Assembly (NCBI GenBank): GCA_046261715.1
Contig: JBHEOF010000001.1
Coordinates: forward strand, 29,690-93,689
Direction of reading: 5' to 3'
From: Bacteroidales bacterium
GTDB taxonomy: Bacteria; Bacteroidota; Bacteroidia; Bacteroidales; UBA7960
Length of the DNA: 64,000 nucleotides
A program made the position numbers and the translations under genes. The notes beneath the pieces were generated by a model that was not told the DNA's origin, searched no databases, and saw only the letters and a program-made list of their open reading frames with translations. Shown here piece after piece: positions 301-42,402 of the stretch (its first letter is position 1; every line of letters begins with the position of its first letter).

Positions 301-838
301 ATGTTTTAAAATAAGATTAATTTGATTATCTGTTTTTCTAACTCGCACCAACCAACCTGAAAATTACTGTAGCTTAAGCCGGCTGCAAAATTAATAGAAA
401 TTTGTGAAGTGGTCAATTACATTCAATACTTAAGCAAACGCCTTCTTTTGGATTATAGCAGAAAAAGCATCATGAAAATTAGTAAACATATATTAAATTT
501 TATCGCACATAATAAGCCATACAACAAATAAAACAGTTATTTAAAAGTTAAAATATGACAATATAATGAACTTAATCTTCCGCTATTCAACTTTTTACTT
601 TAAAAAATTTTTAGTTTATAAATTTTTTTAAAAAATCTTAGTATACTTGCAAAGTAAAATAACCGACATGAAATCGCGTATTTTTCTTTTTGTCAGCAAA
701 ATAAAAGTAACTCCCTGGGACCACTAACTTCAGGCATTCATAAAACCGCATGTTACTTTTTGTTGGTAAACCATGAAGAAAAATTGCGATTTTTTTATTT
801 CAAATCACAACCAAAACTTAAACAAATAATAAAAATTT

Positions 839-3778
839 ATGAAGAAAGAACTATTAGGTTTTATTGTTATGATTTTATTGGGTTTGAGCATAACAGCCCA
901 AACAATAACCATAACAGGAACCGTAACTTCTGTAATGGAAGACGATATGCCTTTGCCGGGAGCTACGGTTCAGATAAAAGGAACTACTCTAGGTACGGTA
1001 ACCGATATGGAGGGTCGTTATCAGATTGAAGCATCTGCAACAGACACATTATTTTTCTCTTATGTGGGTATGATAAGTGAAATTGTTCCCATTGAAGGCA
1101 GAAATATTATCAATGTTGGTCTGAGAATGGATATTGCCCGCCTTGGAGAGGTTGTAGTTGTAGGCTATGGAACAGAATCCAGTCGTCTTGTTTCAGGCTC
1201 ACTGGGTGTAGTAAGTGAAAGTGAGATGCGCGATGTGCCCATGCGTACACTTGATGGGGTGTTGCAAGGACGATCGGCTGGTGTGCAAATCACTCAGAAT
1301 GCAGGAAACCCGGGTGCAGCTACATCAATAAGAATCAGGGGAAACAGTTCGATATCGGCAGGAAATGAGCCTTTGTATGTTATTGACGGTATACCCATGA
1401 CCAGCGGAAACTATGGCCAAATTGGCTTCTCGGGACAAGGTATCAATGCTTTGTCAGACATTAACCCCAACGACATTGAATCGATCACCGTTCTGAAGGA
1501 TGCTTCAGCAGCTGCTATTTACGGTGCCAGGGCAACCAACGGTGTAATAGTCATTACTACACGCCGCGGTAGTGAAAAACGTACCGATATTAACTTTAAC
1601 ATGTCCATGGGCAGGCAGGAGGCAGCAAATGTATTGCAAATGCTCAACGCTGACCAGTGGCATGATTATCGCGGCACAGAGCCCGATCCTGATAATCCGG
1701 TTGACACGGACTGGTTGAGTAAAATTTTCAGGGAGGCCCCCATGAGCAGCTATGAGTTATCAGCAAGCGGTGGTGATGAAAAAACCCAGTTCTTTATTTC
1801 AGGAAACTATTTTATGCAGGAAGGTATTATTATCGGTACCGATTTTCAAAGATTAAACGGACGGCTTAACCTTGACCATAAAGTAAATTCAAATGTTACT
1901 ATAGGTGGTAGTCTTGGAACAAGTTATTCATTTAATAATCGTGTTGAAGGCGACCGGTCGTTGCATGGGGTATTGCCCAATGCCATTTCAATGGCACCCA
2001 TTTATCCTGTTTACAACGAAGATGGCACTTATAACCAGGATGGCTTTTTTGCAAACCCCATAGCAATAGGAAATGAAGCTATCAATGAAGCACACTCTTA
2101 CCGAACAATTGGTAATGCTTTTACCGATATCACATTTCTCGATAACTTTACATTCAGTACAAAATGGGGTATGGATTACCTGAGTTTGAGAGAACACAGT
2201 TATGATCCAACTACTACGCGTCAGGGTGCTACAACCAACGGTTTGGGAATTGAAGCTCAAACCAGTGTGCTGAATATAGTTTCAAATAATCTTCTACGAT
2301 ATAATAATAGTTTTCAGGAAGTTCATAACGTGGAAGTCTTGGGAGGTTATTCATTTGAAATGTTCCAACGTCGCATACAGTATGCAGAAGGTGTTGACTT
2401 CCCGGGTGCTTATTTCCAGTATCTGCTTGATGCCGGAACCATCAGATTAGCTGAAGCCAGGGCCACTGACAGGGGCATAAATTCATATTTCGGTCAAATG
2501 CGGTATAATTATGATTACAAATATATTGTGTCTTTGAGCGGCAGATTTGATGGATCATCTAAATTCGGACCCAACAACAGATATGGTTTCTTCCCGGCAG
2601 TTTCAGTTGCATGGCGTTTAACAGAAGAATCTTTCTTTCAAAGCCTTAAGGCAACTATAAATGAATTCAGAATCAGAACCAGTTATGGTCTTACAGGTAA
2701 TGACGGAATACCCGATTTTGCATACATGGACCTCTACAGGGGCAGAGCAAATTATCGTCAGCAAGCGGGTATAGCTCCCACTGGGATCCCTAATCCTGAC
2801 TTAAAATGGGAAACCACAAGACAATTTAACATAGGTGCAGATATTGAGTTTTTTGATGAAAGAATTGCATTTGCTCTGGATTATTACCACAATACTACAT
2901 CAGATTTGTTGTTCAACAGACCGGTTTCTTTCACTTCAGGATTTACTTCAATTACTTCCAATATCGGGGAACTTGAAAATAAAGGTGTTGAAGTTTCATT
3001 AACCACACTCAATGTCAGTAAAAATAAATTTTCCTGGGAAACAAAGTTTAATCTGAGCCATAATAAGAATAAAATCCTGTCACTTTATAAGGATCAGAAC
3101 CTTCTGGACCTTGACAGATATAGCCCCAGTGCAGTTATTGTGGGTGAGCCCATGAGCGTATTCTATGGTTTCAGAAGTTTGGGTGTTGACCCCAGTACCG
3201 GCGATATTGTTTGGGATGATATAGATGGTAACGGAGTAATCAACTCTGATGACCGCACTATCATTGGTGATCCTAATCCTTTATTTACAGGAGGATTTAC
3301 AAATAATCTGATGTATGGACCCTTTGAGTTAAACTTTTTTATTCAGTTTTCATATGGTAACGATATATTCAATGCAACACGAATATTTATTGAAGCAATG
3401 AAGGGGCCCGATAATCAAAGTGTTGCCATATTGGATCGCTGGAGACAGCCCGGTGACGAAACAGATATACCAAGAGCATCAGAAAACGACCCCAATGCAA
3501 ATAACCGCATTTCTTCAAGATTTGTTGAAGATGGATCCTATGCCCGGCTTAAAAACTTAACCTTTTCTTACAATGTGAAACGCGAATGGGTTCAACGAAT
3601 CGGAGCACAAAGTGCACGTATCTTCTTCACCGGAGCAAACCTTATTACTGTAACCAACTATTCAGGAATGGATCCTGAAGTAAATTACAGAGGAGACAGT
3701 AATTTGCTAAGAGCCACTGACTTTTTCACCTACCCACAGGCGAGAACCTATACGTTTGGAATTAATTTAAGACTTTAA
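839..3778 (+). CDS. SusC/RagA-family TonB-dependent outer-membrane transporter
   Basis: 979 aa. Signal peptide, then a carboxypeptidase-regulatory-like domain (ITITGTVTS...GATVQIKGT..GTVTDMEGRYQI). The plug region reads VVVVGYGT...LQGRSAGVQITQ..G.PGAATSIRIRG..S...NEPLYVIDGIP. A long beta-barrel ends in an aromatic-rich C-terminal strand (TYTFGINLRL). A SusD gene follows 12 nt downstream. Confidence 0.93.
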   Translation: MKKELLGFIVMILLGLSITAQTITITGTVTSVMEDDMPLPGATVQIKGTTLGTVTDMEGRYQIEASATDTLFFSYVGMISEIVPIEGRNIINVGLRMDIARLGEVVVVGYGTESSRLVSGSLGVVSESEMRDVPMRTLDGVLQGRSAGVQITQNAGNPGAATSIRIRGNSSISAGNEPLYVIDGIPMTSGNYGQIGFSGQGINALSDINPNDIESITVLKDASAAAIYGARATNGVIVITTRRGSEKRTDINFNMSMGRQEAANVLQMLNADQWHDYRGTEPDPDNPVDTDWLSKIFREAPMSSYELSASGGDEKTQFFISGNYFMQEGIIIGTDFQRLNGRLNLDHKVNSNVTIGGSLGTSYSFNNRVEGDRSLHGVLPNAISMAPIYPVYNEDGTYNQDGFFANPIAIGNEAINEAHSYRTIGNAFTDITFLDNFTFSTKWGMDYLSLREHSYDPTTTRQGATTNGLGIEAQTSVLNIVSNNLLRYNNSFQEVHNVEVLGGYSFEMFQRRIQYAEGVDFPGAYFQYLLDAGTIRLAEARATDRGINSYFGQMRYNYDYKYIVSLSGRFDGSSKFGPNNRYGFFPAVSVAWRLTEESFFQSLKATINEFRIRTSYGLTGNDGIPDFAYMDLYRGRANYRQQAGIAPTGIPNPDLKWETTRQFNIGADIEFFDERIAFALDYYHNTTSDLLFNRPVSFTSGFTSITSNIGELENKGVEVSLTTLNVSKNKFSWETKFNLSHNKNKILSLYKDQNLLDLDRYSPSAVIVGEPMSVFYGFRSLGVDPSTGDIVWDDIDGNGVINSDDRTIIGDPNPLFTGGFTNNLMYGPFELNFFIQFSYGNDIFNATRIFIEAMKGPDNQSVAILDRWRQPGDETDIPRASENDPNANNRISSRFVEDGSYARLKNLTFSYNVKREWVQRIGAQSARIFFTGANLITVTNYSGMDPEVNYRGDSNLLRATDFFTYPQARTYTFGINLRL

Positions 3779-3790
3779 AAGAGGACAAAA

Positions 3791-5146
3791 ATGAAAAAAA
3801 CAATTTATATTTCAGCGATATTAATCTGGGTTTTGGGTGCGTGTGATGTACTGGATGTACAACCTTACCACTCAATGCCTTCAGATGAAGCAATAACAGA
3901 TTCAGCACAGGTACAATCAGGAATAACAGGTTGCTACGATGCCCTACAGAGCGGAGGTTATTATGGAATGGATTACGTAATATGGGGTGATCTGCCTGCC
4001 GACAATCTCACACATGTGGGCATTACAGTTACCTGGGCCGATATTGATAACAATAATATACTTGCCGATAATGGCCTGGTTGAGGGCACATGGATTGCAA
4101 TTTATCGGGTGCTTAGCCGGGTAAACAATGTTTTAGAGCAAATTCCCGCTATTGAAGATGATAAACTTTCACAAACAGGAAAAAACATTGCTGAGGCTGA
4201 GCTCAGGTTTTTACGTGCCCTGGCACATTATGATCTGATGCGCTTGTTTGGACCCATTCCCATAAGGGAAAGTGCGGTAACAGCAGATGAAGAAAGCCTT
4301 AATCCCCCGAGAAACAGTATTGATGAAGTTTTGCAAAGTGTTAATACCGATCTGGATTTTGCAATTTTGCACCTGCCAGATGAACCCATTATCAGGAGTA
4401 AAGCATCCTTACCTGCTGCTATAGCGCTCAAAGCACGTATAGCATTGCATCAATATTACATTACTGGAAATACAGAGTTTTTAGCACGGGCAATAACCCA
4501 TGCAACTGAAGTAATAAATCATCCTTCACTGGAAATTGAACCCGACTATGCAAAATTGTATTCTCTTGAACCCACTACCGAATCCATTTTTGAAGTATCG
4601 TATAATGAACAGGACAGAAACCTTACTGCCCGGTATTTTGCGCATACTTCACTGGCGGGCAGATATGAATTTTCACCTACTGACTTTTATCTGAACTCGT
4701 TTGATGAAGATGATTTACGTAAGGATATCTCCGTTGCATTTGCAGGATCAGACCCCTACGTTTTGAAGTTCAATGACGTAGCCTCCGGAACAGATCCGGT
4801 TTATGTACTTCGTCTGGCAGAAATGTATCTGATCAGAGCTGAGGCAGCAACCATTTTACAGGATGATACTGATGAAATTCTCAGTGACATAAACGAGATA
4901 AGAGAGAGAGCCGGATTAACACCCGCCACTATGACCAGCTACACTGCACTTGCACTTGAAATTGAGTCGCAAAGGCAGAAAGAATTTGCTTTTGAAGGCC
5001 ATCGTTGGTTTGATCTTGTAAGAACCGGTAAGGCCCTTGACAGGCTCGAAAATGTAACAAGCATAAACCAAACTCTTTTCCCGATTCCCCAAGCCGAGAT
5101 CATTTCCAATGATAATCCGGGGATGTATCAAAATGATGGTTATTAA
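3791..5146 (+). CDS. SusD/RagB-family nutrient-binding outer-membrane lipoprotein
   Basis: 451 aa with lipoprotein signal (ILIWVLGAC). It has the SusD-like TPR core motif AEAELRFLRALAHYDLMRLFGPIPI and a C-terminal block QRQKEFAFEGHRWFDLVRTG. It lies immediately after SusC. Confidence 0.9.
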   Translation: MKKTIYISAILIWVLGACDVLDVQPYHSMPSDEAITDSAQVQSGITGCYDALQSGGYYGMDYVIWGDLPADNLTHVGITVTWADIDNNNILADNGLVEGTWIAIYRVLSRVNNVLEQIPAIEDDKLSQTGKNIAEAELRFLRALAHYDLMRLFGPIPIRESAVTADEESLNPPRNSIDEVLQSVNTDLDFAILHLPDEPIIRSKASLPAAIALKARIALHQYYITGNTEFLARAITHATEVINHPSLEIEPDYAKLYSLEPTTESIFEVSYNEQDRNLTARYFAHTSLAGRYEFSPTDFYLNSFDEDDLRKDISVAFAGSDPYVLKFNDVASGTDPVYVLRLAEMYLIRAEAATILQDDTDEILSDINEIRERAGLTPATMTSYTALALEIESQRQKEFAFEGHRWFDLVRTGKALDRLENVTSINQTLFPIPQAEIISNDNPGMYQNDGY

Positions 5147-5167
5147 CAACACTAAAAAATTATAAGC

Positions 5168-6076
5168 ATGAAAAAAATATCAATTTATTTCCCTTTTCTC
5201 GTTGTTTTTACCCTTCTGATGATTACACTTACAGCATGTAAGGAGGATGAATCTGATATTCCTCCGGCCAGCACCCAGGCTGCATTTGATTACGAAGTTA
5301 CTGTTATTGTAATTGATGAAGAAGAAGGCATAGAGTATTATGAAGTAAACCTGACTAACAGGTCGGTACTCGCTCAATCCTACTTTTGGGATTTTGGCAA
5401 CGGCGAAACATCAACCGAAGAAAACCCAACAGTTACTTACACCAGCTCGGGAAGCTATACAATTACATTAACAGTTGAACCTTTGAACGATGTGTACTAT
5501 AATAATCTTACCGAAAGTGTTTCATTGTCATTTGGTAAAATAGAAATTTTGTTCGAAGACTTTAGCGAAGGAATTGATTATCTGGATGAAGATACATGGG
5601 CTCCTGAAGGATGGCAAACTATTGATAATGATGGAGATGGCTTTAACTGGTTTGCAAGTTACAGAACAGAAGAGAATGACACCATCCATTCATTGCGAAG
5701 TCAGTCATGGACATCTGCAACAGGACCCCTGGCTCCTGATAACTGGCTTATTACTCCCGAAGTTGATCTTACAGAATATAGTGAAGGTGCTACCATAACA
5801 TTCAGGTTTACGGTAGGTGTTACTGCAAGTACACCTGAATACCGTCAGGAGAACTACGGTGTTTTCATTTCTGAAGGAAATGATAACATTGACAATTTTG
5901 AACTTCTGCTGGAAGAAACCTTTACGGAAGATACTCCGCGTATGACGCCTCTTGAAAGGAGTGTTGATATATCAGAATATGCCGGTGAGGTTGTTTACCT
6001 TGCCATACGACACTTCAATGTAACCGATAATGACCGGATCTTTGTTGAAGAGGTTGAAATTTTTGCTATAGAATAA
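5168..6076 (+). CDS. surface lipoprotein with a PKD domain and a choice-of-anchor-J / cleaved-adhesin-like domain (SGBP-like position in the locus)
   Basis: 302 aa with lipobox LTAC. PKD signature YFWDFGNGETSTEENPTVTYTSSGSYTITLTV. C-terminal domain reads EGWQTIDNDGDGFNWF...SQSW...LAPDNWLITPEVDL...YLAIRHFN. This is the third gene of the SusCD unit. Confidence 0.7.
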   Translation: MKKISIYFPFLVVFTLLMITLTACKEDESDIPPASTQAAFDYEVTVIVIDEEEGIEYYEVNLTNRSVLAQSYFWDFGNGETSTEENPTVTYTSSGSYTITLTVEPLNDVYYNNLTESVSLSFGKIEILFEDFSEGIDYLDEDTWAPEGWQTIDNDGDGFNWFASYRTEENDTIHSLRSQSWTSATGPLAPDNWLITPEVDLTEYSEGATITFRFTVGVTASTPEYRQENYGVFISEGNDNIDNFELLLEETFTEDTPRMTPLERSVDISEYAGEVVYLAIRHFNVTDNDRIFVEEVEIFAIE

Positions 6077-6091
6077 TACTCACATAATAAA

Positions 6092-6125
6092 AGGAAAAGC
6101 CAGCTTAATCTGGCTTTTCCTTTTC
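6092..6125 (+). terminator. intrinsic terminator-like hairpin after the SusCD-lipoprotein unit
   Basis: AGGAAAAGCCAG-CTTAAT-CTGGCTTTTCCT forms a perfect 12-bp stem followed by TTTC. Confidence 0.5.
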
Positions 6126-6139
6126 AATCCCCTGACTTT

Positions 6140-7009
6140 ATGAAATGGATATTATTGATATTTGTATCGGTTTTTTCTTTAGCTTACTGTAACCCGATTG
6201 GCAATAATGCCGATGGGGAGAGTAACGACATCAAGGGCAGCTTATTTATTATTGGTGGGGGCAGCCGACCTGATCATCTCGTTAACCGAATGATTGATGA
6301 AGCCAATCTGCGTAATGAAGGCTATGCAGTAGTTTTGCCCATGTCAAGTTCAGTGCCCGATTCTGCTATCATATGGGCTTCAGAACAATTTCACCGCAAT
6401 GGAATAGATAATGTAACAGGATTCAATTTTTTACCCGGCGGGTACATCCCGCTTCAGTGGATCGACTCGTTAAAAAATGCTTCACTGATTTATATTAGTG
6501 GTGGTGATCAAAATCGGTTTATGGCAGTTGCCGGGGAGAATGAAATTGAAGAAGCCTTACATTATGCTTACAAAAACGGGGCCTTGATTGCAGGTACAAG
6601 CGCAGGAGCAGCCGTAATGAGTGAATTAATGATTACCGGAGATGAATTGCGCTATCCCGACTATACTTCCACCTTCCGCACCATTGAATCTAAAAACTTG
6701 GAAGTAAAAAGAGGTCTGGGATTGGTTACTTCTGCCATAATTGACCAGCATTTTGTTTACCGAAGCCGCCACAACCGTTTGTTTACTGCCGTTATTGAAT
6801 ATCCGGAACAGATAGGTATAGGGATTGATGAATCAACGGCCATACTTGTAAAAGGTAATGAAGCTGAAGTTGTGGGAGAATCTCAGGTAATGATCTTTAA
6901 AAATCCCAATAACTCTTACAAGGAAAAAAACACCAAGCTGGGAGCGCTTAATCTGGTAATTGATATTTACTTACCTGGCGAAAAATTTTCAATGAATTTA
7001 CACCAATAA
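6140..7009 (+). CDS. cyanophycinase-like peptidase (family S51), exported lipoprotein
   Basis: 289 aa. Signal and lipobox (VFSLAYC), LFIIGGGSRPD near the N-terminus, ISGGDQNRF, and the serine nucleophile motif GTSAGAAVMSE. The size fits cyanophycinase rather than the ~230-aa PepE. Confidence 0.72.
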   Translation: MKWILLIFVSVFSLAYCNPIGNNADGESNDIKGSLFIIGGGSRPDHLVNRMIDEANLRNEGYAVVLPMSSSVPDSAIIWASEQFHRNGIDNVTGFNFLPGGYIPLQWIDSLKNASLIYISGGDQNRFMAVAGENEIEEALHYAYKNGALIAGTSAGAAVMSELMITGDELRYPDYTSTFRTIESKNLEVKRGLGLVTSAIIDQHFVYRSRHNRLFTAVIEYPEQIGIGIDESTAILVKGNEAEVVGESQVMIFKNPNNSYKEKNTKLGALNLVIDIYLPGEKFSMNLHQ

Positions 7010-7019
7010 AAAATCTCCA

Positions 7020-8639
7020 ATGCTGAAAAAAGTTCCGCACACTTATGTCATCGTTTTTGGTATTATTGTAATTGCAGCTGTCCTTACCTGGTTTATCCCC
7101 CCCGGTAAATACGTTGAAGTAACTGAGGTTATTGATGGCAAGGAAAGAACCGAAATGGTATTTTTATACGAAGAAGACCTTCCTGAAGAATACCAGGATA
7201 AATTTGACAGCAATATACAAACATGGCAGGTGTTTTCAGCCCTTTTTAAAGGTTTCGTTAAGCAAAGTAACATCATCATCTTTATTTTGATGATCGGCGG
7301 AGCATTTTGGATCATGAATCATAGCAGAGCAATAGATGTAGGAATTTTTGCTTTCCTCAAATTTACCCGAAAGCTTGAGAATAATACCTTGATGCGAAAA
7401 ATCGGTGTGGATAATATTATCATTGTACTGATCATGATCCTTTTCAGTTCATTTGGCGCTATATTCGGAATGAGCGAAGAAACCATTGCATTTGTTATAA
7501 TTCTCATACCCCTTGCCATTTCTATGGGTTATGATTCTTTAACAGGAGTTAGTATGGTGTATATTGCTGCCCATCTGGGATTTGCCGGTGCCATACTTAA
7601 TCCTTTTACAATTGGTATTGCACAAGGGTTAGCCGATTTACCCCTTTTTTCCGGTATTGAATATCGTTTGTTTGCCTGGGTAGTGATCAATATTGCAGGG
7701 ATATTTTTTGTGTTGCGGTATGCCCATAAAATCAGAAAGAACCCAACATCTTCCATAATGTATGAAGAAGATTCATACTGGCGAAAACGCGAAAAAGCAG
7801 AATCTACTGAGATAACCTATTATACACCTTTAATGGCCTGGGTTGTTTATGGAGTTACACTTTTGGCACTGGTAATTTTCTCATTTATCTACCCTGAAAC
7901 TACAATGGCCGTGGGAAACAGTTCTTTTACCTTTTGGGTTTTACCCCTTTTTACCATACTCTTCGCTATTCTGGGTGTAATCACATTGCGAAAATCAGTT
8001 CATTTCTTCATTCTTCTGCTGCTGGGGTATACCATAATATTCCTTATTGTCGGAGTAATGGGATATGGATGGTATGTAATGGAAATTGCCACCTTGTTCC
8101 TGGCCATGGGCATTGCCAGCGGCCTGGCAATAAACAAATCTGCTGATGATATTGCAAAACTGTTTCTGGAAGGCGTTAAGGATATTATGTCGGCAGCAAT
8201 AATAGTTGGGCTGGCAGGTGGAATAATTGTAGTGCTGGAAGATGGCGGTATTATTGATTCCATTCTTTACGGGCTTTCAAAGTCAATGGGTAACTTTGGC
8301 AATGTAGCTTCCGTTGGGGTGATGTATGTTATACAAACCATAATAAACATCGTTATTCCTTCAGGTTCTGCCAAAGCAGCCATAACAATGCCTATCATGG
8401 CACCTTTCAGCGATTTGATAGGAATATCACGCCAGGCAACTGTTATGGCATTTCAGTTTGGTGACGGTTTTACCAATATGATCACACCAACTTCAGGTGT
8501 ACTGATAGCTGTTTTGGGTGTTGCCAGAATTCCTTATCATAAATGGGTAAAATGGGTATGGCCTTTGATCATTACAATGATCATACTTGGATTCCTGTTG
8601 CTTATACCCACTGTAACGATGAAATTGAGTGGATTTTAA
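7020..8639 (+). CDS. YfcC-family (DcuC-like C4-dicarboxylate anaerobic carrier fold) polytopic transporter
   Basis: 539 aa. N-terminus KVPHTYVIVFGIIVIAAVLTWFIPPGKY is typical of YfcC proteins, and the protein has many TM segments. It starts 10 nt after the cyanophycinase gene. Confidence 0.8.
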   Translation: MLKKVPHTYVIVFGIIVIAAVLTWFIPPGKYVEVTEVIDGKERTEMVFLYEEDLPEEYQDKFDSNIQTWQVFSALFKGFVKQSNIIIFILMIGGAFWIMNHSRAIDVGIFAFLKFTRKLENNTLMRKIGVDNIIIVLIMILFSSFGAIFGMSEETIAFVIILIPLAISMGYDSLTGVSMVYIAAHLGFAGAILNPFTIGIAQGLADLPLFSGIEYRLFAWVVINIAGIFFVLRYAHKIRKNPTSSIMYEEDSYWRKREKAESTEITYYTPLMAWVVYGVTLLALVIFSFIYPETTMAVGNSSFTFWVLPLFTILFAILGVITLRKSVHFFILLLLGYTIIFLIVGVMGYGWYVMEIATLFLAMGIASGLAINKSADDIAKLFLEGVKDIMSAAIIVGLAGGIIVVLEDGGIIDSILYGLSKSMGNFGNVASVGVMYVIQTIINIVIPSGSAKAAITMPIMAPFSDLIGISRQATVMAFQFGDGFTNMITPTSGVLIAVLGVARIPYHKWVKWVWPLIITMIILGFLLLIPTVTMKLSGF

Positions 8640-13262: not shown

Positions 13263-14999
13263 ATGAAAACTTATGTAAAACTTATCGTTGCAATGTCGGT
13301 ATTTTTTGCTGCATGTTCAACCAGTTACCGTGCAACAAATACTTACGACGACATTTATTACAGTCCTGACAATGCGCGGCAATATGCAGAAACTGCTCAG
13401 GAAACCAGCGTAAATGCTGTTCAGGTGAGCCCTGCCGATGAAAGCCGTCCCGCAGGCACTTACACAGAAGATGGCCAGGCATACACTGATGATTATTATG
13501 ATAACAATAATCAGTACAGTGAAGAAGATTATTATTCGCAGCCTGCAGAAACAGAAACTTATTACGATGACCAGGGCAATACTTATATAACCAATAATTA
13601 TTATGATGGTTATTACGATTATGCCTATTCATCTCGTATACGCAGGTTCCATAACAACTATGCTTATTTCAGCTATTATGATCCTTACTTTACCAATCTT
13701 TACTGGTATAATTATGATCCTTATTATTATGGAATAAGCATCTATCAGGGTTACGGTGCTCTTCCGCTCTATTACCCCGGTTATTATTACTCCTGGGGTT
13801 ACAGGCCTTGGGGATGGGCCCATTACGGTTACGGTTGGGGCTGGGGTCCCAGTTGGGGCAGCCCCTGGTATGGCAATCATTACGGCTACTGGGCAGGTTA
13901 CCATCAAGGCTACTGGGCCGGTTATTATGGTGGCTACTATGGAGGTTATTATTCACAGTATCTCTATAACAGCTATGATGCTAATAACTACTATTATGGG
14001 CAAAGAGGCCCCACCGGAAGTACCGTTGCCGATGGCACAAGACCCGCTTCCGGTCGCCATAATAATCAGCAAGCATCCTTTGCTGAACGTTATGAATCTT
14101 CTGACAGACGTATACCAAGCACAAGGGATGTTGCCTCTCGTGAAGCAAGACAAGGAGAAGTAACACGTGAAAAACAAAGTTCAACTTCACCTGCTACAGC
14201 AAGGCGGCCAGTTGAAACACCTGCTGTAACCAGGGAAACCAGACCTGCAGAAACTGCAGCTCCTCAAAAACAAGTTGAAAGAGAAACAGCTGCAAGACCA
14301 CAGCAGGCAACACAACCGCAAAGGCCTGAACAGCAAGCCCGTCCGCAGCAAAGTACTCCGCAGCAACAACGGTATCAGCCTGAGCGCAGACAATCAGATT
14401 ATACTGCGCCAAGCCGTGAGCGTAACCAGGGTGAGCAAACACCAAGGTATACAAGGCCGCAACAGGCAACACCAGCAAGAAGTCCGCGTGAGAGTGAAGC
14501 TACTCCGGCACAAAGCAGGCCAAGAACGTATACTTCACCCAGCCAGCAGCAGCCACGCTCGAATCAGGAGTACAGGAGACCGGCCGGTGAGCAGAGACCT
14601 GCTTCTGTAGGAAATGAACGCGAAGGACAACAGCCTCAACAGCAGGCCCGTCCACAACAAACACGTCCTGCACCCACTCGTCCGCAGGCTACTCCGCAGC
14701 AAAGGCCACAACAAACAAGGCCACAGGCTACACCGCAGAGAACTCCTACGCAAACAAGGCCGCAGGCTACACCGCAAAGGTCTCCTCAAAGCAGACCTCA
14801 GGCTGCTCCGCAAAGGGCACCGCAAAGGAGTACCCCATCGGTTAGTTCCCCATCCCGAAGCAGGTCCTCTTCTTCCGGTAGCAATGTAAGAAGTACTCCT
14901 TCGCCTTCAAGAAGCTCGGGTTCTTCATCAAGAAGCAGCTCCAGCTCAAGAAGCAGTTCAAGCTCCAGCTCAAGAAGCAGTGGCGGTAGAAACAGATAG
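13263..14999 (+). CDS. YXWGXW-repeat lipoprotein with a long low-complexity tail (PQRT-rich repeats followed by a Ser/Arg tract)
   Basis: 578 aa with lipobox FFAAC. The Tyr/Gly/Trp-rich region reads YYSWGYRPWGWAHYGYGWGWGPSWGSPWYGNHYGYWAGY. About 250 aa of P/Q/R/T/A-rich sequence follows, with repeated RPQATPQR units. The final ~55 aa are almost pure Ser/Arg. All other frames are open here because of the biased composition. Confidence 0.75.
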   Translation: MKTYVKLIVAMSVFFAACSTSYRATNTYDDIYYSPDNARQYAETAQETSVNAVQVSPADESRPAGTYTEDGQAYTDDYYDNNNQYSEEDYYSQPAETETYYDDQGNTYITNNYYDGYYDYAYSSRIRRFHNNYAYFSYYDPYFTNLYWYNYDPYYYGISIYQGYGALPLYYPGYYYSWGYRPWGWAHYGYGWGWGPSWGSPWYGNHYGYWAGYHQGYWAGYYGGYYGGYYSQYLYNSYDANNYYYGQRGPTGSTVADGTRPASGRHNNQQASFAERYESSDRRIPSTRDVASREARQGEVTREKQSSTSPATARRPVETPAVTRETRPAETAAPQKQVERETAARPQQATQPQRPEQQARPQQSTPQQQRYQPERRQSDYTAPSRERNQGEQTPRYTRPQQATPARSPRESEATPAQSRPRTYTSPSQQQPRSNQEYRRPAGEQRPASVGNEREGQQPQQQARPQQTRPAPTRPQATPQQRPQQTRPQATPQRTPTQTRPQATPQRSPQSRPQAAPQRAPQRSTPSVSSPSRSRSSSSGSNVRSTPSPSRSSGSSSRSSSSSRSSSSSSSRSSGGRNR

Positions 15000-26401: not shown

Positions 26402-27565
26402 TTATGTAAGAAAGCTAAGCAGGATTCCGGCGGCAATGGCACTTCCTATTACACCTGATACATTGGCAGCCATTGCATGCATGAGCAGATGATTGGTTTT
26501 ATCGTACTCAAGACCCACATGTTGCGAAACACGTGCGCTATCGGGCACAGCTGATACGCCTGAATTACCAATCAAAGGATTTATCTTGTTACCCTCTGAT
26601 GCAAAAAAGTTCATAACTTTAGCAAACAACACCCCGCTGAATGTTGCTACAATAAAGGATGCAGCACCCAATCCAAAGATCATCATCGACTGGGGGGTGA
26701 TAAATACATCACCCTGAGTAGATGCACCTACTGTAAGACCGAGAAAGATAGTAACAATATCAATGAGCGATGATCTTGCTGTTTCAGCCAGGCGATTGGT
26801 AACACCACTCTCTTTCAGGAGATTTCCAAAGAACAACATCCCCAGCAATGGCAATGAGGTTGGCATAATAAAAGTGGTAAGAAGCATACCAATAATCGGA
26901 AATAGAATTTTCTCCTGCTTGGGAACGGCACGCGGCGGTTTCATACGAATGAGCCTTTCCTTTTTGGTAGTCAGGAGCCGCATGATAGGCGGCTGAATCA
27001 CAGGCACCAGTGCCATATACGAATACGCTGCAATGGCAATTGGACCGATAAATTCAGGTGCAAGTTTTGATGAAAGAAAGATCGCCGTGGGGCCATCGGC
27101 ACCACCAATAATGGCAATTGCACCGGCCTGTTCAGGTTCAAAACCCAGCAATAAAGATGATGAATAAGCAGCAAAAATACCAAATTGCGCAGCTGCTCCC
27201 AGTAGTACCAGCTTTGGCTTTGAAAGCAATGATGAAAAATCCGTCATTGCTCCAATTCCAAGGAATATAAGTGGAGGATAAAATCCTCTTTCCACTCCCT
27301 GGTAAAGCAAATTAAGCACACTTCCTTCTTCGTAAATCCCGATTTGTAGATTGGCTGAAAGATCAAATGGTATATTTCCTAAAATAATCCCAAACCCAAT
27401 GGGTATAAGCAATAAAGGTTCGTAATGCTTAATGATGGCCAGTGAAATAAAGAAAAGACCGACACATATCATTATCAGGTGACGATAATCAACATTGGCA
27501 AAGCCTGTGTATCCATAGAGTTCGGATAATTGTTCTGTTATGAATTGAAAAACTCCTGTATCCAT
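26402..27565 (-). CDS. mmdB: Na+-translocating decarboxylase beta subunit (OadB/MmdB family)
   Basis: 387 aa polytopic membrane protein. Motifs EPLLLIPIGFG, GADGPTAIF and NLLKESGV are typical of oxaloacetate/methylmalonyl-CoA decarboxylase beta chains. Confidence 0.9.
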   Translation of the reverse strand: MDTGVFQFITEQLSELYGYTGFANVDYRHLIMICVGLFFISLAIIKHYEPLLLIPIGFGIILGNIPFDLSANLQIGIYEEGSVLNLLYQGVERGFYPPLIFLGIGAMTDFSSLLSKPKLVLLGAAAQFGIFAAYSSSLLLGFEPEQAGAIAIIGGADGPTAIFLSSKLAPEFIGPIAIAAYSYMALVPVIQPPIMRLLTTKKERLIRMKPPRAVPKQEKILFPIIGMLLTTFIMPTSLPLLGMLFFGNLLKESGVTNRLAETARSSLIDIVTIFLGLTVGASTQGDVFITPQSMMIFGLGAASFIVATFSGVLFAKVMNFFASEGNKINPLIGNSGVSAVPDSARVSQHVGLEYDKTNHLLMHAMAANVSGVIGSAIAAGILLSFLT

Positions 27566-27575
27566 AATAAATCTC

Positions 27576-28010
27576 CTATCCTATTTCAATCATTACATCA
27601 CCTTCCATAACTGATTGACCTGGATTAACCAGAATAGCAGCAACGGTACCTTCTTTATCAGAGTCAATATTATTCTCCATTTTCATTGCTTCAAGGGTAA
27701 TAAGTTTCTGGCCCATTGATATCTTATCACCCACTTTGCAGTGAATATTTAATACCGTGCCCGGCAGTGGTGCCTTAATGTTACCAACACCTTTGCTAAC
27801 CCTGGTTCCTGTACCTTCTGACGGGGTTGTATCGGTAGAAGGTACGGCACGTGCCCGAACCAGCTTGGGAGTTTTTACCGGTTGAATAGATCTGTCAACC
27901 TCAACATTGTATGTTGAACCGTTTACCTCCAGTTCAATGATGTTGTCTTCCACGTTGAGAATGCTAACATCATATTCATTACCATGTATCGTAAACTTAT
28001 ATTTTTTCAT
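27576..28010 (-). CDS. mmdC: biotin carboxyl carrier subunit of the decarboxylase
   Basis: 144 aa with the C-terminal biotinyl domain and EAMKMEN biotin-attachment motif. Confidence 0.85.
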   Translation of the reverse strand: MKKYKFTIHGNEYDVSILNVEDNIIELEVNGSTYNVEVDRSIQPVKTPKLVRARAVPSTDTTPSEGTGTRVSKGVGNIKAPLPGTVLNIHCKVGDKISMGQKLITLEAMKMENNIDSDKEGTVAAILVNPGQSVMEGDVMIEIG

Positions 28011-28053
28011 TGTTTTTATTCTTTTCCAGAAATGACAGTCGTAAAATTACCCG

Positions 28054-28500
28054 TCAGTTTTTTGTTATATTTCTTAATCCGTAAATTTTTGAGCTCCAGG
28101 GCGAATAAGTTCGCGAAACCTTGCTGATAGTAAGTACCGTATTTTCGTAGTCATGAAGTTCAGACCGATAAAGGTAAATTGCTGCGGCAATGGCTGCATT
28201 TACTTCACCACTAAGGTCTTCCGGTCGTGAAGCCTTGCTATCATCAGTATCAATTTCTTGTTTTGTATATTTTCGCCCTGACCATAATGATGATAATCGC
28301 GATTTAAACTCCGGCGAATAGATTCGTTGAGTGTTTGAAAAAACTGCAAAAAGAAGAACCAATGATAAAAACACGATTCCCATTCCTAATATGGCCATAA
28401 GAACACCGTAAGGGTCATTCTGGGCAAACACAGAAACTTCATCGGCTGCTCTTGTATTGCCGGTTTCCACTTGTTGCGCAATATAATGTATATTCAGCAT
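28054..28500 (-). CDS. OadG-family small membrane subunit (decarboxylase gamma/delta-like)
   Basis: 148 aa. A single TM helix GVLMAILGMGIVFLSLVLLFAVF is followed by an A-rich linker (VNAAIAAAIYLY). Its position is between the carboxyltransferase and BCCP genes. Confidence 0.65.
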   Translation of the reverse strand: MLNIHYIAQQVETGNTRAADEVSVFAQNDPYGVLMAILGMGIVFLSLVLLFAVFSNTQRIYSPEFKSRLSSLWSGRKYTKQEIDTDDSKASRPEDLSGEVNAAIAAAIYLYRSELHDYENTVLTISKVSRTYSPWSSKIYGLRNITKN

Positions 28501-28513
28501 AATTATTTATAGA

Positions 28514-30073
28514 TTACAGTGGAATATTTGAATGTTTTTTCGGAGGGTTCAAATCCTTTTTGGTAGCCAGCGATTGCAAAGCCCTTATAATTCTGAACCT
28601 GGTATTTCTTGGTTCAATAACATCATCAATATACCCGTATTTTGCCGCATTATAAGGAGTAGCAAATTTCTCAAGGTATTCATTTTCTTTATCAATGATG
28701 AATTTTAATCGTTCTTCTTCATTTTCAATGGCTTTAATCTCTTTGTTTCTGAGAATTTCTGTTGCCCCCTTAGGCCCCATAACAGCAATCTCTGCCATGG
28801 GCCATGCATAGTTGATATCACCGCGCAGGTGTTTCGAACTCATTACACAATAGGCACCTCCATAAGCCTTTCGAAGCACCACAGTAACTTTTGGAACAGT
28901 CGCTTCACCATAAGCAAAAAGCAGCTTGGCTCCGTGTAGAATTATACCACCATATTCCTGCACTGTTCCCGGGAGAAAACCGGGCACATCAACAAGGGTA
29001 ACAAGAGGAATATTGAAAGAATCGCAAAATCTGACAAACCGGGCAGCCTTTCTTGAAGCATTGATATCAAGAACCCCTGCAAGATATTTTGGTTGATTGG
29101 CAACTATGCCCACAGGCATACCATTGAAACGGGCAAATCCGGTTATAATATTAGATGCATAATTGCGATGAACCTCCAAAAACTCGTTATAATCCACAAT
29201 GGCATAAATCACATCCTTTACATCATACGGTTTATTGGGATTTACAGGAATAATATCATTCAGCTCATCGTCAAGTCTGTCAATAGGATCTTCGCATGGT
29301 GAAAGCGGAGGATCTTCAAGATTATTCTGGGGAAGAAAGCTCAACATTTTTCTGATGAGCAATAAGCCCTGTTCTTCATCATCAGCTACAAACTGAGCCA
29401 CACCGGACTTTGATCCATGTGTCATGGCACCACCAAGCTCCTGATCTGTTACCACTTCGCCTGTTACAGTTTTCACAACTTTGGGACCTGTAAGAAACAT
29501 ATAGCTATTCTCTTTGGTCATAACAATAAAATCGGTGAGGGCGGGAGAATAAACTGCCCCACCGGCACAAGGGCCAAAGATTCCGGTGATTTGGGGTATA
29601 ACTCCTGATGCATTGATATTACGTTGAAATATCTCAGCATAACCTGCAAGACTGTTAACGCCTTCCTGAATTCTTGCACCACCACTATCGTTCAGACCGA
29701 TAACGGGTGCACCTACCTTCATGGCCTTGTCCATTATTTTGCAGATTTTCTCAGCATAGGCAAGCGACAATGAACCGCCGAAAACAGTAAAATCCTGGGC
29801 ATAAACATAAACCAGACGCCCGTCAACCGTGCCAAAACCTGTTATTACTCCATCGGAATATATTTTTTGTGATTCTATTCCGAAATCATTGCAACGGTGG
29901 GTAACAAACATATCAAACTCTTCGAAGCTTCCTTCATCAAGTAAAATATCAATCCGTTCGCGGGCAGTCAGTTTACCTTTACGATGCTGTGCATCAATAC
30001 GTTTTTGCCCGCCGCCAAGCTTTGCCAGCTCACGCTTCTCGAGCAATTCTTTAATTTTCCTTTCAAACGACAT
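28514..30073 (-). CDS. mmdA: methylmalonyl-CoA decarboxylase alpha subunit / acyl-CoA carboxyltransferase
   Basis: Start chosen at [22 protein letters not shown] (ATG 30073). The body is the duplicated crotonase-like carboxyltransferase fold ([52 protein letters not shown]). Confidence 0.92.
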
Positions 30074-30092
30074 GTCAGAATTTACTTTACAG

Positions 30093-30506
30093 TTAGGATT
30101 TGTTTTTGTCTTCGCAAAGTTCGGTAAGCACTCCACCGGTAGATTTTGGATGCAGGAAAGCAATATCAAGACCTTCGGCTCCTTTTCGCGGTTGCTGATC
30201 TACCAGTTGAATTCCTTTTTCCTGCAGGGTAACAAGTGCATTCTCAATACCATCAACAGCAAAAGCAAGATGATGAACTCCTTCTCCTTTTTTCTCAATA
30301 AATTTTCCGATGGGGCCACCGGGGTCAGTAGACTCAAGAAGTTCGATTTTTGTGTCGCCAAGCTTGAAGAAAGCAGTTTTAACTTTTTGATCTTTTACCT
30401 CCTCAATGGCATAGCATGCAAGACCCAGCACATCTTCATAAAAACGAATGGATTCATCAAGATCTTTTACAGCAATACCAATGTGTTCAATATGGGTAAG
30501 TTTCAT
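30093..30506 (-). CDS. mce: methylmalonyl-CoA epimerase (VOC/glyoxalase fold)
   Basis: Start chosen at [23 protein letters not shown] (ATG 30506). Also GEGVHHLAF and [14 protein letters not shown]. Confidence 0.9.
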
Positions 30507-36194: not shown

Positions 36195-37133
36195 ATGAAA
36201 AAGTTTTTTTCCCTGTTATTTATTCTTGGTTTTATTACAGTGTATGCACAGGAGCGCAATGCCGATCCTGCCAAACAATGGGATATTTCAAAAGAAAATG
36301 ATTGTGAAGGGTTTTCATTGAATTTTTTTGATGAGGAACTTGTAACAGCAGACACCCTGATCACAAAAATTTTAGGTGATGATATCCAATCATACAGTAT
36401 ATTGAATTCTCAGGCTGCTACCGGTCAAAATGCATCTGCGGGTATATTTAATGGTGGAAATGCTGCGGGAATTAACCTGGAAAGTGGAATAATACTGAGT
36501 TCCGGATTTATAAAAAACGTAACCGGACCGAATGAATATTCCGGAGTAACAGGAGTATTGAATCTGCCGGGCGATGAAGACATGGAAGCTCTTATACCCG
36601 GCTATGAAACCCTTGACGCAACCATACTTGAGTTTTCATTTATACCGGTTCATGACACACTCTTCATAAGCTTTGTTTTTGGATCTGATGAGTACAATGA
36701 ATGGGTCGGCTCACCTTACAATGATGTATTTGGATTTTTTCTGAATGGTGAAAACATTGCTTTGGTTCCTGAAACAAATGACAGAATATCAGTAAATAGT
36801 ATCAATAATTTCAGTAATAATAATTTTTTTATAAATAATGATGAGCGTCCAGGTCTGTTTTGCAATGAAATGGATGGTTTCACAACTTTACTGACTGCCA
36901 TAGGTATTGTTTCACCCGGTGAATTAAACCACATAAAGCTGGCCATTGCCGATGCCGGCGACAGAAGTTTCGACTCCTGGGTTTTTATCAAAAGTGGCGG
37001 TTTTACCGGCATTGATCCGGGTGATCCTGATGACGACGATCCGGTTCCATTACCCCTGAAAAACTGGCCCATATTTCTTATAATGATAATGATACTGGTT
37101 TTCACCTTCATTAAGATCAGAAGATCTGCATAA
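36195..37133 (+). CDS. secreted choice-of-anchor-L-like protein with a PEP-CTERM-like C-terminal sorting signal
   Basis: 312 aa. Signal peptide MKKFFSLLFILGFITVYAQ. The core reads LEFSFIP..DTLFISFVFGSDEYNEWVGSPYNDVFGFFLNGENIALVP...DG.T..L. The C-terminus is DPGDPDDDDPVPLPLKNW-PIFLIMIMILVFTFI-KIRRSA. Confidence 0.7.
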   Translation: MKKFFSLLFILGFITVYAQERNADPAKQWDISKENDCEGFSLNFFDEELVTADTLITKILGDDIQSYSILNSQAATGQNASAGIFNGGNAAGINLESGIILSSGFIKNVTGPNEYSGVTGVLNLPGDEDMEALIPGYETLDATILEFSFIPVHDTLFISFVFGSDEYNEWVGSPYNDVFGFFLNGENIALVPETNDRISVNSINNFSNNNFFINNDERPGLFCNEMDGFTTLLTAIGIVSPGELNHIKLAIADAGDRSFDSWVFIKSGGFTGIDPGDPDDDDPVPLPLKNWPIFLIMIMILVFTFIKIRRSA

Positions 37134-40988: not shown

Positions 40989-42374
40989 CTACTTTCTGAA
41001 CTTCTTAATAAACTCTTCCACTTCCGGCAATCCTCCCTGGTAAACCAGGTAACCATTATAAGGTTCCCGGGGAGTAATATCATCGTTCATCGGGGTAAGC
41101 ATCATGCGTTTTACTTCTTCGGGGTCGTTGGTTTGCCCAAGTACCCAACCCAGTTTTATATAAGCCACTTCGGGTAACATATTTTCAGCGGGTATAACCC
41201 CCAGTGCCATAAGCTCGCGACCAGTTTCATACACAAACATGTGTACATAACCCCAAAGGGTTTGCACAGTCATATAAACTGCAACACCTTTTTTACAGGC
41301 TCGTTTCAATGCAGGATAAAGCGGTTTGTTGACATGACCCAAACCCGTTCCGGCAATAATGATACCCTTGTAACCATTATCAACAAGAGAATCTATCATA
41401 TCAGGCATCATATTGGGGTAGTAGTATACCATGGCTACTTTTTCTTCAAAATAAGGATAGATCTTCACCTTATTATCCTTGCGCCTTGGGTTATATTCAG
41501 TTTTAATAGGTACCACACCCTTCCTTGTAACCCTGGCCAAAGGAGTATCACCCAGTGTGCGAAATGTACTGCGATATGAAGAATGCATTTTCCTGACCCG
41601 GGTACCACGATGTAGCAGCGCGTATTCATCAGAGGTGGGCCCGAACATGCATACCATTACTTCTGCGATATCAGCATAACCGGCCGTATAACATGCATGC
41701 ATAAGATTCAGAGCTGCATCAGAAGAAGGCCTGTCGGATGAACGCTGCGAACCAACCAGTACAATGGGTACCGGCGAATCCTGTATCATATAGGTCAATG
41801 CAGCGGCGGTATGATGCAGGGTATCGGTACCATGCCCGATCACGATACCCTGTATTCCGTTTTCAATCTCTTTACCAATGGCAACAGCCAGCTTTTTATA
41901 CTGTTCCGGACCCATATTTTCGCTAAAAACAGCAAAAACCTTTTCTGTAGTAAGATTGCAGATATCAGCCAACTCGGGTACTGCACCATACAATTCACCC
42001 GGACTGAAGGCCGGAATCACTGCTCCGGTCCGGTAATCGAGCCGCGATGCAATAGTACCGCCGGTTCCAATAAGTTTTACTTTGGGCAAACCTTTGGTAT
42101 AGGGAAACTCTTTCTCCGGAATCTTGTAGTTTGCCTTCTTATAGCCTGTTTCCTTCATTGACAAAATGGTGCCCACATCAATACCAATATTGTATCCCGT
42201 ATCAATTTTTAACACAATGTGGGTGTCATCATCATTTTCAGACCTGGGAAGTACGGTGCCTGAAAAATTACCCCGGGAGGTTTCGATCTTACACTGCCCC
42301 CAAACCCTAACATTATATTTTTTAAGCACCTTTAGTGCTGTATTCTTATAGCCCTGAAAATAATCTTCTGCCAT
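40989..42374 (-). CDS. gatD: archaeal-type Glu-tRNA(Gln) amidotransferase subunit D homologue (GatD)
   Basis: 461 aa. GatD-specific N-terminal domain (CKIETSRGNFSGTVLP...VLKIDTGYNIGIDV). The asparaginase core carries GTGGTIASRLDYRTGAV, GHGTDT and the GatD hallmark VGSQRSSDRPSSDAALNL...RKMHSS.R..F. Confidence 0.88.
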   Translation of the reverse strand: MAEDYFQGYKNTALKVLKKYNVRVWGQCKIETSRGNFSGTVLPRSENDDDTHIVLKIDTGYNIGIDVGTILSMKETGYKKANYKIPEKEFPYTKGLPKVKLIGTGGTIASRLDYRTGAVIPAFSPGELYGAVPELADICNLTTEKVFAVFSENMGPEQYKKLAVAIGKEIENGIQGIVIGHGTDTLHHTAAALTYMIQDSPVPIVLVGSQRSSDRPSSDAALNLMHACYTAGYADIAEVMVCMFGPTSDEYALLHRGTRVRKMHSSYRSTFRTLGDTPLARVTRKGVVPIKTEYNPRRKDNKVKIYPYFEEKVAMVYYYPNMMPDMIDSLVDNGYKGIIIAGTGLGHVNKPLYPALKRACKKGVAVYMTVQTLWGYVHMFVYETGRELMALGVIPAENMLPEVAYIKLGWVLGQTNDPEEVKRMMLTPMNDDITPREPYNGYLVYQGGLPEVEEFIKKFRK

Positions 42375-42402
42375 CTGATTTTATTTTTATTATTTATGTG
42401 AG

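Follow-up and report, generated by a model that had tools for sequence, protein, structure and literature searches.

A reduced gene cluster of an uncultured Bacteroidales bacterium that resembles a polysaccharide utilization locus and is predicted to serve cyanophycin utilization

We analysed a 64 kb stretch of DNA (the window) from a metagenome-assembled genome (MAG) of an uncultured Bacteroidales bacterium deposited in GenBank. The window contains five open reading frames (ORFs), arranged head to tail on the plus strand, which encode a SusC-type transporter, a SusD lipoprotein, a lipoprotein with PKD and choice-of-anchor-J domains, a lipoprotein of peptidase family S51 and a YfcC-family carrier. 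We believe that this cluster is a reduced cyanophycin utilization locus that resembles a polysaccharide utilization locus (PUL), in which import across the outer membrane would be followed by cleavage in the periplasm and by uptake through YfcC; we give this reading a probability of about 0.7. Cyanophycin is a large, nitrogen-rich reserve of Asp and Arg in cyanobacteria and many other bacteria, and its recycling after the death of the cells is poorly known.

Our model has four steps. SusD and the PKD/choice-of-anchor-J protein would bind cyanophycin, or soluble fragments of it, from lysed producer cells. SusC, energized by TonB, would import oligomers across the outer membrane, and the S51 lipoprotein, facing the periplasm, would cut them into beta-Asp-Arg dipeptides. 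YfcC would then move the dipeptides to the cytoplasm, for release of Asp and Arg by an isoaspartyl dipeptidase whose gene would lie elsewhere. A first-pass annotation of this DNA had suggested the same sequence of capture, import, cleavage and uptake, and it is supported by hidden Markov model (HMM) scores, gene adjacency, export signals and the association of YfcC with certain dipeptidases.

The kind of locus is already known, from genome analysis alone, and the window's cluster is a reduced member of it, with one S51 gene, no dipeptidase gene and a different surface protein. The first-pass annotation was wrong to say that no SusC/SusD-based cyanophycin locus had been described, as one was predicted in 2017. 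The abstract of that work, by Ben Hania and colleagues, is said to mention a transport complex homologous to those of PULs. According to PMC10206079 and PMC6243061, the locus of Ben Hania et al. (2017, Environ Microbiol 19:1134) is a PUL-like one for the use of cyanophycin and belongs to Salinivirga cyanobacteriivorans L21-Spi-D4. Like the window, it combines a SusC/SusD complex, one or more cyanophycinase genes and an inner-membrane carrier, and it was read as a means of scavenging environmental cyanophycin. Salinivirga has two cyanophycinases, one of them with a Por secretion domain (PMC6243061). Scavenging clusters have been noted both in L21-Spi-D4 and in Flammeovirga pacifica WPAGA1 (PMC10206079). 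The WPAGA1 cluster, which is locus L047 of the survey described below, has the canonical order, running from a large S51 gene through SusC, SusD, a PKD protein, a second S51 gene and IaaA to YfcC; the window's S51 protein is 52% identical, and its SusC 51% identical, to the L047 proteins.

Each of the five genes was assigned with domain models. The susC gene (839-3778, plus strand) encodes a SusC/RagA-type TonB-dependent outer-membrane transporter of 979 amino acids, which scored 856 bits on TIGR04056 (cut-off 368), bears the TIGR04057 signature and has Plug, CarboxypepD_reg and beta-barrel domains. Only 12 nt further on, susD (3791-5146, plus strand) encodes a SusD/RagB-family lipoprotein of 451 amino acids (PF07980 and PF14322) with its lipid Cys, so that the two genes form a SusC/SusD uptake pair. 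The third gene (5168-6076, plus strand) encodes 302 amino acids with a PKD domain (PF18911) and a C-terminal Cleaved_Adhesin/choice-of-anchor J domain (PF07675; NF038128, 79 bits). Next come the S51 lipoprotein gene (6140-7009, plus strand; 289 amino acids), a predicted cyanophycinase gene, after a gap of 63 nt, and the yfcC-family gene (7020-8639, plus strand; 539 amino acids, inner-membrane carrier), after a gap of 10 nt. The cyanophycinase homologue and its SusC/SusD and YfcC transporters are thus contiguous. The order of the first three genes and both gaps are as the first-pass annotation had given them, and the GenBank names of the four proteins that were looked up (RagB/SusD, choice-of-anchor J, cyanophycinase and YfcC family) agree with these assignments.

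With domain models we found neither a glycoside hydrolase nor a lyase or esterase domain in the five genes and the genes on either side, which bears out the first-pass annotation on glycoside hydrolases. As no carbohydrate-active enzyme (CAZyme) is linked to it, the locus is PUL-like and not a PUL in the strict sense, and we rejected a glycan PUL on the same ground. Strain-level relatives (L161-L164) have the same gene order as the window. In a comparison with one strain-level relative, at about 88% nucleotide identity, the ratio of nonsynonymous to synonymous substitution rates (dN/dS) was 0.04-0.13 across the five genes, which indicates purifying selection and rules out pseudogenes or decay. 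The highest value, 0.13, was that of the S51 gene.

The S51 lipoprotein as a predicted cyanophycinase

Sequence and a predicted structure both suggest that the S51 protein groups with cyanophycinases and not with dipeptidase E (PepE). The protein matches PF03575 and scored 149.6 bits on the cyanophycinase model TIGR02069 (cut-off 126.6), but it reached only 35.8 bits on the PepE model NF003642 (cut-off 156) and failed it. An AlphaFold2 model (predicted local distance difference test score 86.2) matched the structures 7UQV, 7UQW and 3EN0 in Foldseek with E = 6e-21 to 2e-19 and template modelling (TM) scores of 0.73-0.84; PepE structures gave lower TM scores of 0.47-0.57, normalized by query length. 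We therefore rejected an identity as dipeptidase E. The comparison of the two HMMs had been proposed in the first-pass annotation as a check; it came out in favour of cyanophycinase, and the active-site residues and the predicted fold agree with it.

The protein begins with MKWILLIFVSVFSLAYC, a signal peptide that ends in a Cys with at least 90% conservation across the family, and the sequence IAGTSAGAAVM lies at residues 150-160. Thus, both the lipoprotein signal and the GTSAGA motif reported earlier are present. The protein has thousands of relatives, the best of which are Bacteroidota proteins of equal size. In 24 homologues (57-84% identity), the motif GTS154AGA and residues D202, Q203, H204, R208, R210, R213, Q124 and E231 are invariant. 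Among the 75 small S51 proteins of our survey, eight of these nine sites were invariant or missing only as an alignment gap, and Q203 was present in 73. One such gap fell on S154; otherwise the triad was invariant.

In phmmer alignments with CphB (3EN0, 7UQW), the triad S154, H204 and E231 corresponds to CphB S132, H174 and E201. The pocket residues Q124, D202, Q203, R208, R210 and R213 correspond, by the same method, to CphB Q101, D172, Q173, R178, R180 and R183. The full list of CphB pocket residues reportedly comes from work by Law and colleagues in 2009. S132 is the nucleophile of CphB according to the title of PDB entry 7UQW, and H174 and R178 take part in substrate binding (PMC12661447).

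Conserved neighbours of the S51 gene and the dipeptidase step

The linkage of the S51 gene with SusC and SusD is conserved across several orders of Bacteroidota. We scanned one genome per species for S51 orthologues and obtained 80 loci (42-65% identity) from Bacteroidales, Cytophagales, Flavobacteriales, Chitinophagales, Sphingobacteriales and Balneolales. The ORFs of these loci were called and compared with the window's proteins, the remainder were clustered and the cluster representatives were identified. SusC/SusD genes lay within 10 kb of S51 in 46 of the 80 loci, and near S51 in 35 of the 51 loci that had at least 8 kb on both sides. The order seen in the window, with SusC/SusD upstream on the same strand, was found in 34 of the 45 SusC/SusD-containing loci scored for order. 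In many loci the SusC orthologue adjoining S51 was 43-67% identical to the window's SusC. The recurrent order was large S51, SusC, SusD, one or two PKD lipoproteins, small S51, YfcC and dipeptidase.

The other genes that recur in these loci would suit the use of cyanophycin. An isoaspartyl dipeptidase was encoded in 28 of the 80 loci, either IadA (12 loci; TIGR01975, 467 bits, cut-off 331) or IaaA (16 loci; Asparaginase_2/beta-aspartyl-peptidase). YfcC (PF03606/NF008611) occurred in 23 loci, PKD and beta-propeller lipoproteins (PF18911 and related) in 29, and FecR anti-sigma factors, some with an extracytoplasmic function (ECF) sigma factor, in nine (PF04773, PF16344). In Flavobacterium, six to seven loci had arginase, ornithine aminotransferase and an AsnC regulator. 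Judged by sequence family, these partner genes would match the needs that lie downstream of cyanophycin, which are the hydrolysis of beta-Asp-Arg and then the breakdown of arginine. In 23 of the 80 S51 loci, none of the partner genes was seen. Cyanophycin synthetase (cphA) was not noted among the annotated neighbours of the 80 loci. The S51 protein is exported, as its signal peptide and conserved lipid Cys show, which excludes mobilization of the cell's own cyanophycin; we therefore rejected this role.

A large S51 protein of 580-745 amino acids, with a C-terminal sorting domain of the type IX secretion system (T9SS), was encoded in 18 loci, and loci with this secreted protein still have the small S51. 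In 19 loci (for example L003 1426-3513 and L047 1991-3910), the large S51 kept the Ser, the His and three Arg; the triad Glu was replaced by Asp in 15 of the 19, and the residue equivalent to Q173 was Thr or Ser in all 19. Three T9SS-tailed proteins were scored on TIGR02069 and reached 91-104 bits, below the cut-off. It is possible that the large S51 cuts cyanophycin differently from CphB.

We also carried out the reverse test, in which 17 SusD orthologues were aligned and metagenome contigs were scanned, yielding 80 loci. Seven had a SusD of at least 41% identity, two of which (L085 and L086) gave no information, since they were too short or were truncated on the side that mattered. Four of the five informative loci (L081, L082, L084 and L087) were linked to S51, and the fifth, L083, had no S51 within 7-10 kb. 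By contrast, an S51 gene was found near SusD of 36% identity or less in none of 73 loci. The difference between 4/5 and 0/73 makes the S51 link a property of one orthologous SusC/SusD clade. Conservation of the adjacency had been named earlier as a check on the prediction: SusC/SusD and S51, in some loci with YfcC, have stayed together across Bacteroidota orders, and the reverse test showed the link to be specific.

The closest relatives found outside the species were L081 and L082, with SusC proteins of 62-65% identity and, in L081, a YfcC of 80% identity. In both, iadA lies directly upstream of susC, where the window has instead an AT-rich spacer and a divergent gene for asparaginyl-tRNA synthetase (AsnRS). 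As SusC/SusD, S51 and YfcC were kept and the linked iadA was lost, the lineage may depend on some isoaspartyl dipeptidase that has so far escaped recognition as such. The first-pass annotation saw no isoaspartyl dipeptidase in the cluster, and we found none in the whole window. Ten NCBI matches to the L081 IadA included none with the MFN239... accession series of the MAG. The only dipeptidase-like gene seen in the window encodes a C69-family homologue (37363-39102, plus strand; PF03577, 233 bits; NF033678, 140 bits, cut-off 250), and we saw nothing that ties it to beta-Asp-Arg.

The carrier belongs to the YfcC/DcuC superfamily and is a predicted importer of beta-Asp-Arg. It scored 344 bits on PF03606 (DcuC) and, on the equivalog model NF008611 for YfcC as a putative basic amino acid antiporter, 376.8 bits, below the cut-off of 500; it is therefore not an equivalog of Escherichia coli YfcC. 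A literature search on YfcC with arginine turned up nothing useful. No signal peptide was seen in any IadA or in the IaaA proteins of loci of the Cytophagales type. IaaA with a signal peptide was seen in L028, L032, L037, L042, L051 and L070 (flavobacterial and Sphingobacteriaceae), which have no YfcC; IaaA without one was seen in L014, L015, L019, L043, L047, L048, L052 and L066 (Cytophagales and others), where YfcC is present. These sequences suggest that the two forms of IaaA are periplasmic and cytoplasmic variants of the last step. YfcC accompanied a dipeptidase without a signal peptide in 16 of 22 loci and an exported IaaA in none of six (Fisher p = 0.0025), a statistic that is weak because the six loci come from only two groups, flavobacterial and Sphingobacteriaceae. 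Two loci with exported IaaA (L070 and L080) have a sodium:dicarboxylate symporter (SDF) instead of YfcC, and carriers other than YfcC, SDF among them, serve the loci with exported IaaA or M20. This distribution fits a role for YfcC as a dipeptide importer that would feed a cytoplasmic dipeptidase.

A third type of hydrolase may take the same place. In five loci without IadA, IaaA and YfcC, an M20 peptidase gene adjoins the small S51 gene, and in four of the five it lies directly downstream. These genes are at 10923-12158 in L005, 10773-12125 in L006, 10806-12122 in L013, 10884-12176 (minus strand) in L016 and 10872-12194 in L020, and the products have a signal peptide at least in L006, L013, L016 and L020. 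The beta-Asp-Arg dipeptidases of Bacteroidota 'remain undiscovered' (Sharon and Schmeing, 2023; PMC10206079). By its genomic position, the M20 peptidase is a candidate for such an enzyme.

Predicted protein locations and competing explanations

Surface lipoproteins of Bacteroidota carry an acidic export signal right after the lipid Cys, K-(D/E)2 or similar (PMC5080379). We counted acidic residues at positions +2 to +6 after the lipid Cys in proteins of the surveyed loci and took two or more as a signal. This was present in 32 of 42 SusD proteins (the window's SusD reads C-DVLDV, with two) and in 44 of 48 PKD lipoproteins (C-KEDES in the window, with three, which fits K-(D/E)2). Among the small S51 proteins, only one of 47 had it, and the window's S51 protein (C-NPIGN) has no acidic residue there. 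SusD and the PKD protein are thus predicted to lie at the cell surface and the S51 protein in the periplasm. Surface binding proteins combined with an internal cyanophycinase would make sense only if SusC imported oligomers and not dipeptides.

The PKD/choice-of-anchor-J protein is a candidate substrate-binding protein. Its choice-of-anchor-J domain is 42-43% identical to domains of a 923 amino acid S51-fused protein of L001, which supports the idea that this module would bind the same substrate as S51. The L001 gene (9565-12336, minus strand) lies after yfcC, and its exported product has an S51 domain, two Cleaved_Adhesin/choice-of-anchor-J domains, Listeria-Bacteroides repeats and a dockerin. 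This architecture is unlike that of the T9SS-tailed large S51 proteins of other loci.

Several points weigh against our reading. By both sequence and fold, the closest solved protein to the window's S51 is 7UQV, called 'pseudo-CphB', with 31% identity; identity to true CphB is only 22-23%. Sharon and colleagues reportedly found in 2022 that pseudo-CphB is inactive on cyanophycin. 7UQV keeps the same triad and pocket residues as CphB, and 220 residues of it, scored as a control, reached 281 bits on TIGR02069, above the window's S51 protein. Hence neither the HMM score nor the residues prove that the S51 protein is active. Characterized cyanophycinases are exo-acting enzymes that release dipeptides (PMC10206079), which makes the source of importable oligomers puzzling. 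The window's copy is without two canonical parts, the isoaspartyl dipeptidase and the secreted large S51: tblastn found IadA, IaaA, M20, arginase and the large S51 absent from the 64 kb window. The hairpin described below may make S51-yfcC a separate transcription unit, and the statistic that ties YfcC to cytoplasmic dipeptidases draws on few lineages that are independent. Finally, the literature that we searched contained no biochemical or genetic tests of this kind of locus, no measurements of activity, binding or transport for it, and no assay of any S51 protein of the Bacteroidota lipoprotein clade.

A separate observation concerns annotation. Automatic 'cyanophycinase' names, including that of the window's S51 protein, may cover inactive or differently specific enzymes, given the 281 bits of 7UQV.

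It could be that, in practice, the S51 protein does not act as a cyanophycinase and that the cluster imports some other peptide, such as beta-aspartyl or Arg/Lys-rich oligopeptides, in the manner of RagAB. The resemblance to pseudo-CphB speaks for this, as does the dN/dS of the S51 gene, and RagA is among the closer solved relatives of SusC (330 bits). However, the closest solved SusC is not RagA but the SusC homologue 8AA4 (524 bits). Searches of PDB sequences with SusC, SusD and the PKD protein did not separate peptide from glycan transporters: the SusC homologue 5T3R gave 356 bits, and the best match of SusD was 9SJE_B, with RagB outside the top matches. The Arg-rich pocket is invariant, and the partner genes of the related loci (IadA or IaaA, arginase and ornithine aminotransferase) fit cyanophycin. 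We therefore consider import of another peptide unlikely.

The substrate could also be the same and the topology different. An S51 protein at the surface, or a secreted one encoded elsewhere, would then cut cyanophycin outside the cell, SusC/SusD would import the dipeptides and YfcC would carry them onward. This would suit the exo-acting mode of the characterized enzymes, a T9SS-secreted S51 is added in 18 of the 80 related loci, and the rules for export signals are statistical and not absolute. On the other hand, the acidic signal is nearly confined to SusD and the PKD proteins, and loci with a secreted S51 retain the small one. If only dipeptides entered the cell, this conserved second exported cyanophycinase would be without a substrate. 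We regard cleavage at the surface as quite unlikely for these reasons, and we prefer periplasmic cleavage of imported oligomers.

The hairpin between the transport genes and the S51 gene bears on whether the cluster is one unit. It lies at 6089-6124 (plus strand), has a 15 bp stem and a 6 nt loop, and is preceded by an A-tract and followed by a T-tract. Its folding energy is -21.3 kcal/mol (z = -5.5), and none of 200 shuffles folded as well. The first-pass annotation had recognized it and was right about its presence; it gave the limits as 6092-6125. In L161-L164 the stem is maintained: one pair differs by a double change from A-U to C-G, and two further changes are compatible with wobble pairing. 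L001 and L002 have hairpins at the same position that are unrelated to it in sequence and are likewise bordered by A and T tracts. The earlier caveat of two possible transcription units is thus a real one. The hairpin is likely a terminator or attenuator that sets the S51-yfcC pair apart from the transport genes, and it would probably lower S51-yfcC transcription relative to that of the first three genes, or end one transcript. As its end is only 15 nt from the ATG of the S51 gene, which leaves no room for a promoter, and as no Bacteroidetes -7 box was found on the plus strand at 5389-6329, around the S51 start, we read it as an attenuator or partial terminator and not as proof of independent units.

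It is very unlikely that two unrelated units, a SusC/SusD-PKD system for another nutrient and an S51-YfcC dipeptide module, adjoin by chance, even though a strong hairpin occupies the same position in four lineages and 23 of the 80 S51 loci show no partner genes, because SusC and SusD stay beside S51 in the same order in several Bacteroidota orders, the reverse test links them specifically and the hairpin leaves so little space before S51.

Flanking features and relation to known systems

Upstream of susC lies a 540 bp AT-rich spacer, beyond which the AsnRS gene runs divergently on the minus strand from position 300. Within the spacer, a block at 586-725 (plus strand) is nearly invariant in alignment with the strain-level relatives L161, L162 and L164, and the 5' part of the spacer is divergent. 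This block is a putative promoter region: TATACTTG at 642-649 is one mismatch from the Bacteroidetes -7 box TAnnTTTG, and no exact TAnnTTTG was found on the plus strand at 301-838. A scan with sigma-70 and terminator consensus sequences gave the same counts as shuffles.

The susC leader (670-793, plus strand) is structured. Folding (z = -2.3) gave two helices. The outer one joins 670-688 to 776-793 and has 18 pairs and a single bulged base; the inner one joins 703-711 to 752-760. RNAalifold with L161 kept 30 pairs, with one compensatory change from C-G to U-A and one change from G.U to G-C, and the L161 leader contains a 42 nt imperfect inverted repeat. An Rfam scan of the leader returned chance-level matches only. 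A covariance model of it matched strain-level relatives of the same species and none of the more distant loci. The leader may be a cis-regulatory RNA or an operator.

Housekeeping genes flank the cluster; downstream of it are genes for a Cbp1-like lipoprotein (minus strand), fructose-bisphosphate aldolase and prolyl-tRNA synthetase. Elsewhere in the window, genes for GatD (TIGR02153, 506 bits, cut-off 324) and the adjacent GatE (TIGR00134, 403 bits, cut-off 320) lie at 40989-44382 on the minus strand. To our knowledge, GatDE, the archaeal-type Glu-tRNA(Gln) amidotransferase, is regarded as an archaeal signature; horizontal transfer or contamination could account for it in a Bacteroidales MAG. 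The beta and alpha subunits of a sodium-pumping methylmalonyl-CoA decarboxylase (26402-30169, minus strand) are consistent with an anaerobic, propionate-forming Bacteroidales lifestyle. Two plus-strand ORFs, at 13263-14999 (578 amino acids) and 36195-37133 (312 amino acids), had no Pfam match, and the first had no NCBIfam match either.

The window's cluster departs from canonical cyanophycin loci in three ways. It has one S51 gene and not two, as the T9SS-tailed large S51 is missing; it is without iadA or iaaA; and its third gene encodes a choice-of-anchor-J domain, whereas PKD and beta-propeller proteins are common elsewhere. In its architecture and logic it resembles the Sus system and the utilisomes for levan and dextran of Bacteroides thetaiotaomicron, which likewise pair SusC and SusD with one more surface lipoprotein, a hydrolase in the periplasm and a carrier in the inner membrane. 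Unlike these, it has an S51 serine peptidase and no CAZyme, and its predicted substrate is a non-ribosomal polyamide. RagAB of Porphyromonas gingivalis is likewise of the SusC/SusD type and imports peptides (Madej et al., 2020, Nat Microbiol; PDB 6SLI). However, RagAB takes up peptides from ordinary proteolysis and has neither a dedicated peptidase nor a carrier linked to it, and PDB searches did not place the window's pair nearer to RagAB than to SusC/SusD pairs for glycans.

Individual parts also have counterparts. CphB of Synechocystis (3EN0, 7UQW) and the extracellular CphE of Pseudomonas anguilliseptica have the same S51 fold, Ser-His-Glu triad and Gln/Asp/Arg pocket as the window's S51 protein, which differs from CphB, the sequence used for the comparison, in being a lipoprotein and in its low identity. 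In Citromicrobium sp. JLT1363, a TonB-dependent transporter beside a cyanophycinase gene led to an inference of cyanophycin uptake, but that transporter is alphaproteobacterial and has neither a SusD partner nor surface lipoproteins (Tang et al., 2012; PMC3400609). The Aot system of Pseudomonas aeruginosa (AotJQMP with the CphZ-type AotO) is a functional analogue for the uptake and hydrolysis of beta-Asp-Arg. It uses an ATP-binding cassette importer and an M14-family hydrolase, whereas here the carrier is of the YfcC/DcuC secondary type and related loci encode IadA or IaaA (PMC9974463).

The gain for this particular window is modest, as GenBank names for its genes exist and loci of this type had been predicted by 2017. 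A bolder claim, which we put forward only tentatively, is that this would be the first SusC/SusD system shown to import oligomers of a non-ribosomal polyamide, with a cyanophycinase that is a lipoprotein facing the periplasm and with YfcC as a carrier of beta-Asp-Arg, the first substrate assigned to that family. The model can be tested in parts: the surface binder, the periplasmic cyanophycinase, YfcC where the dipeptidase is cytoplasmic, and the periplasmic alternatives IaaA and M20. If it is true, SusC/SusD utilisomes serve a storage polyamide as well, and not just glycans and proteolytic peptides, and the Bacteroidota that live in mats, sediments and waters would be specialized consumers of cyanophycin.

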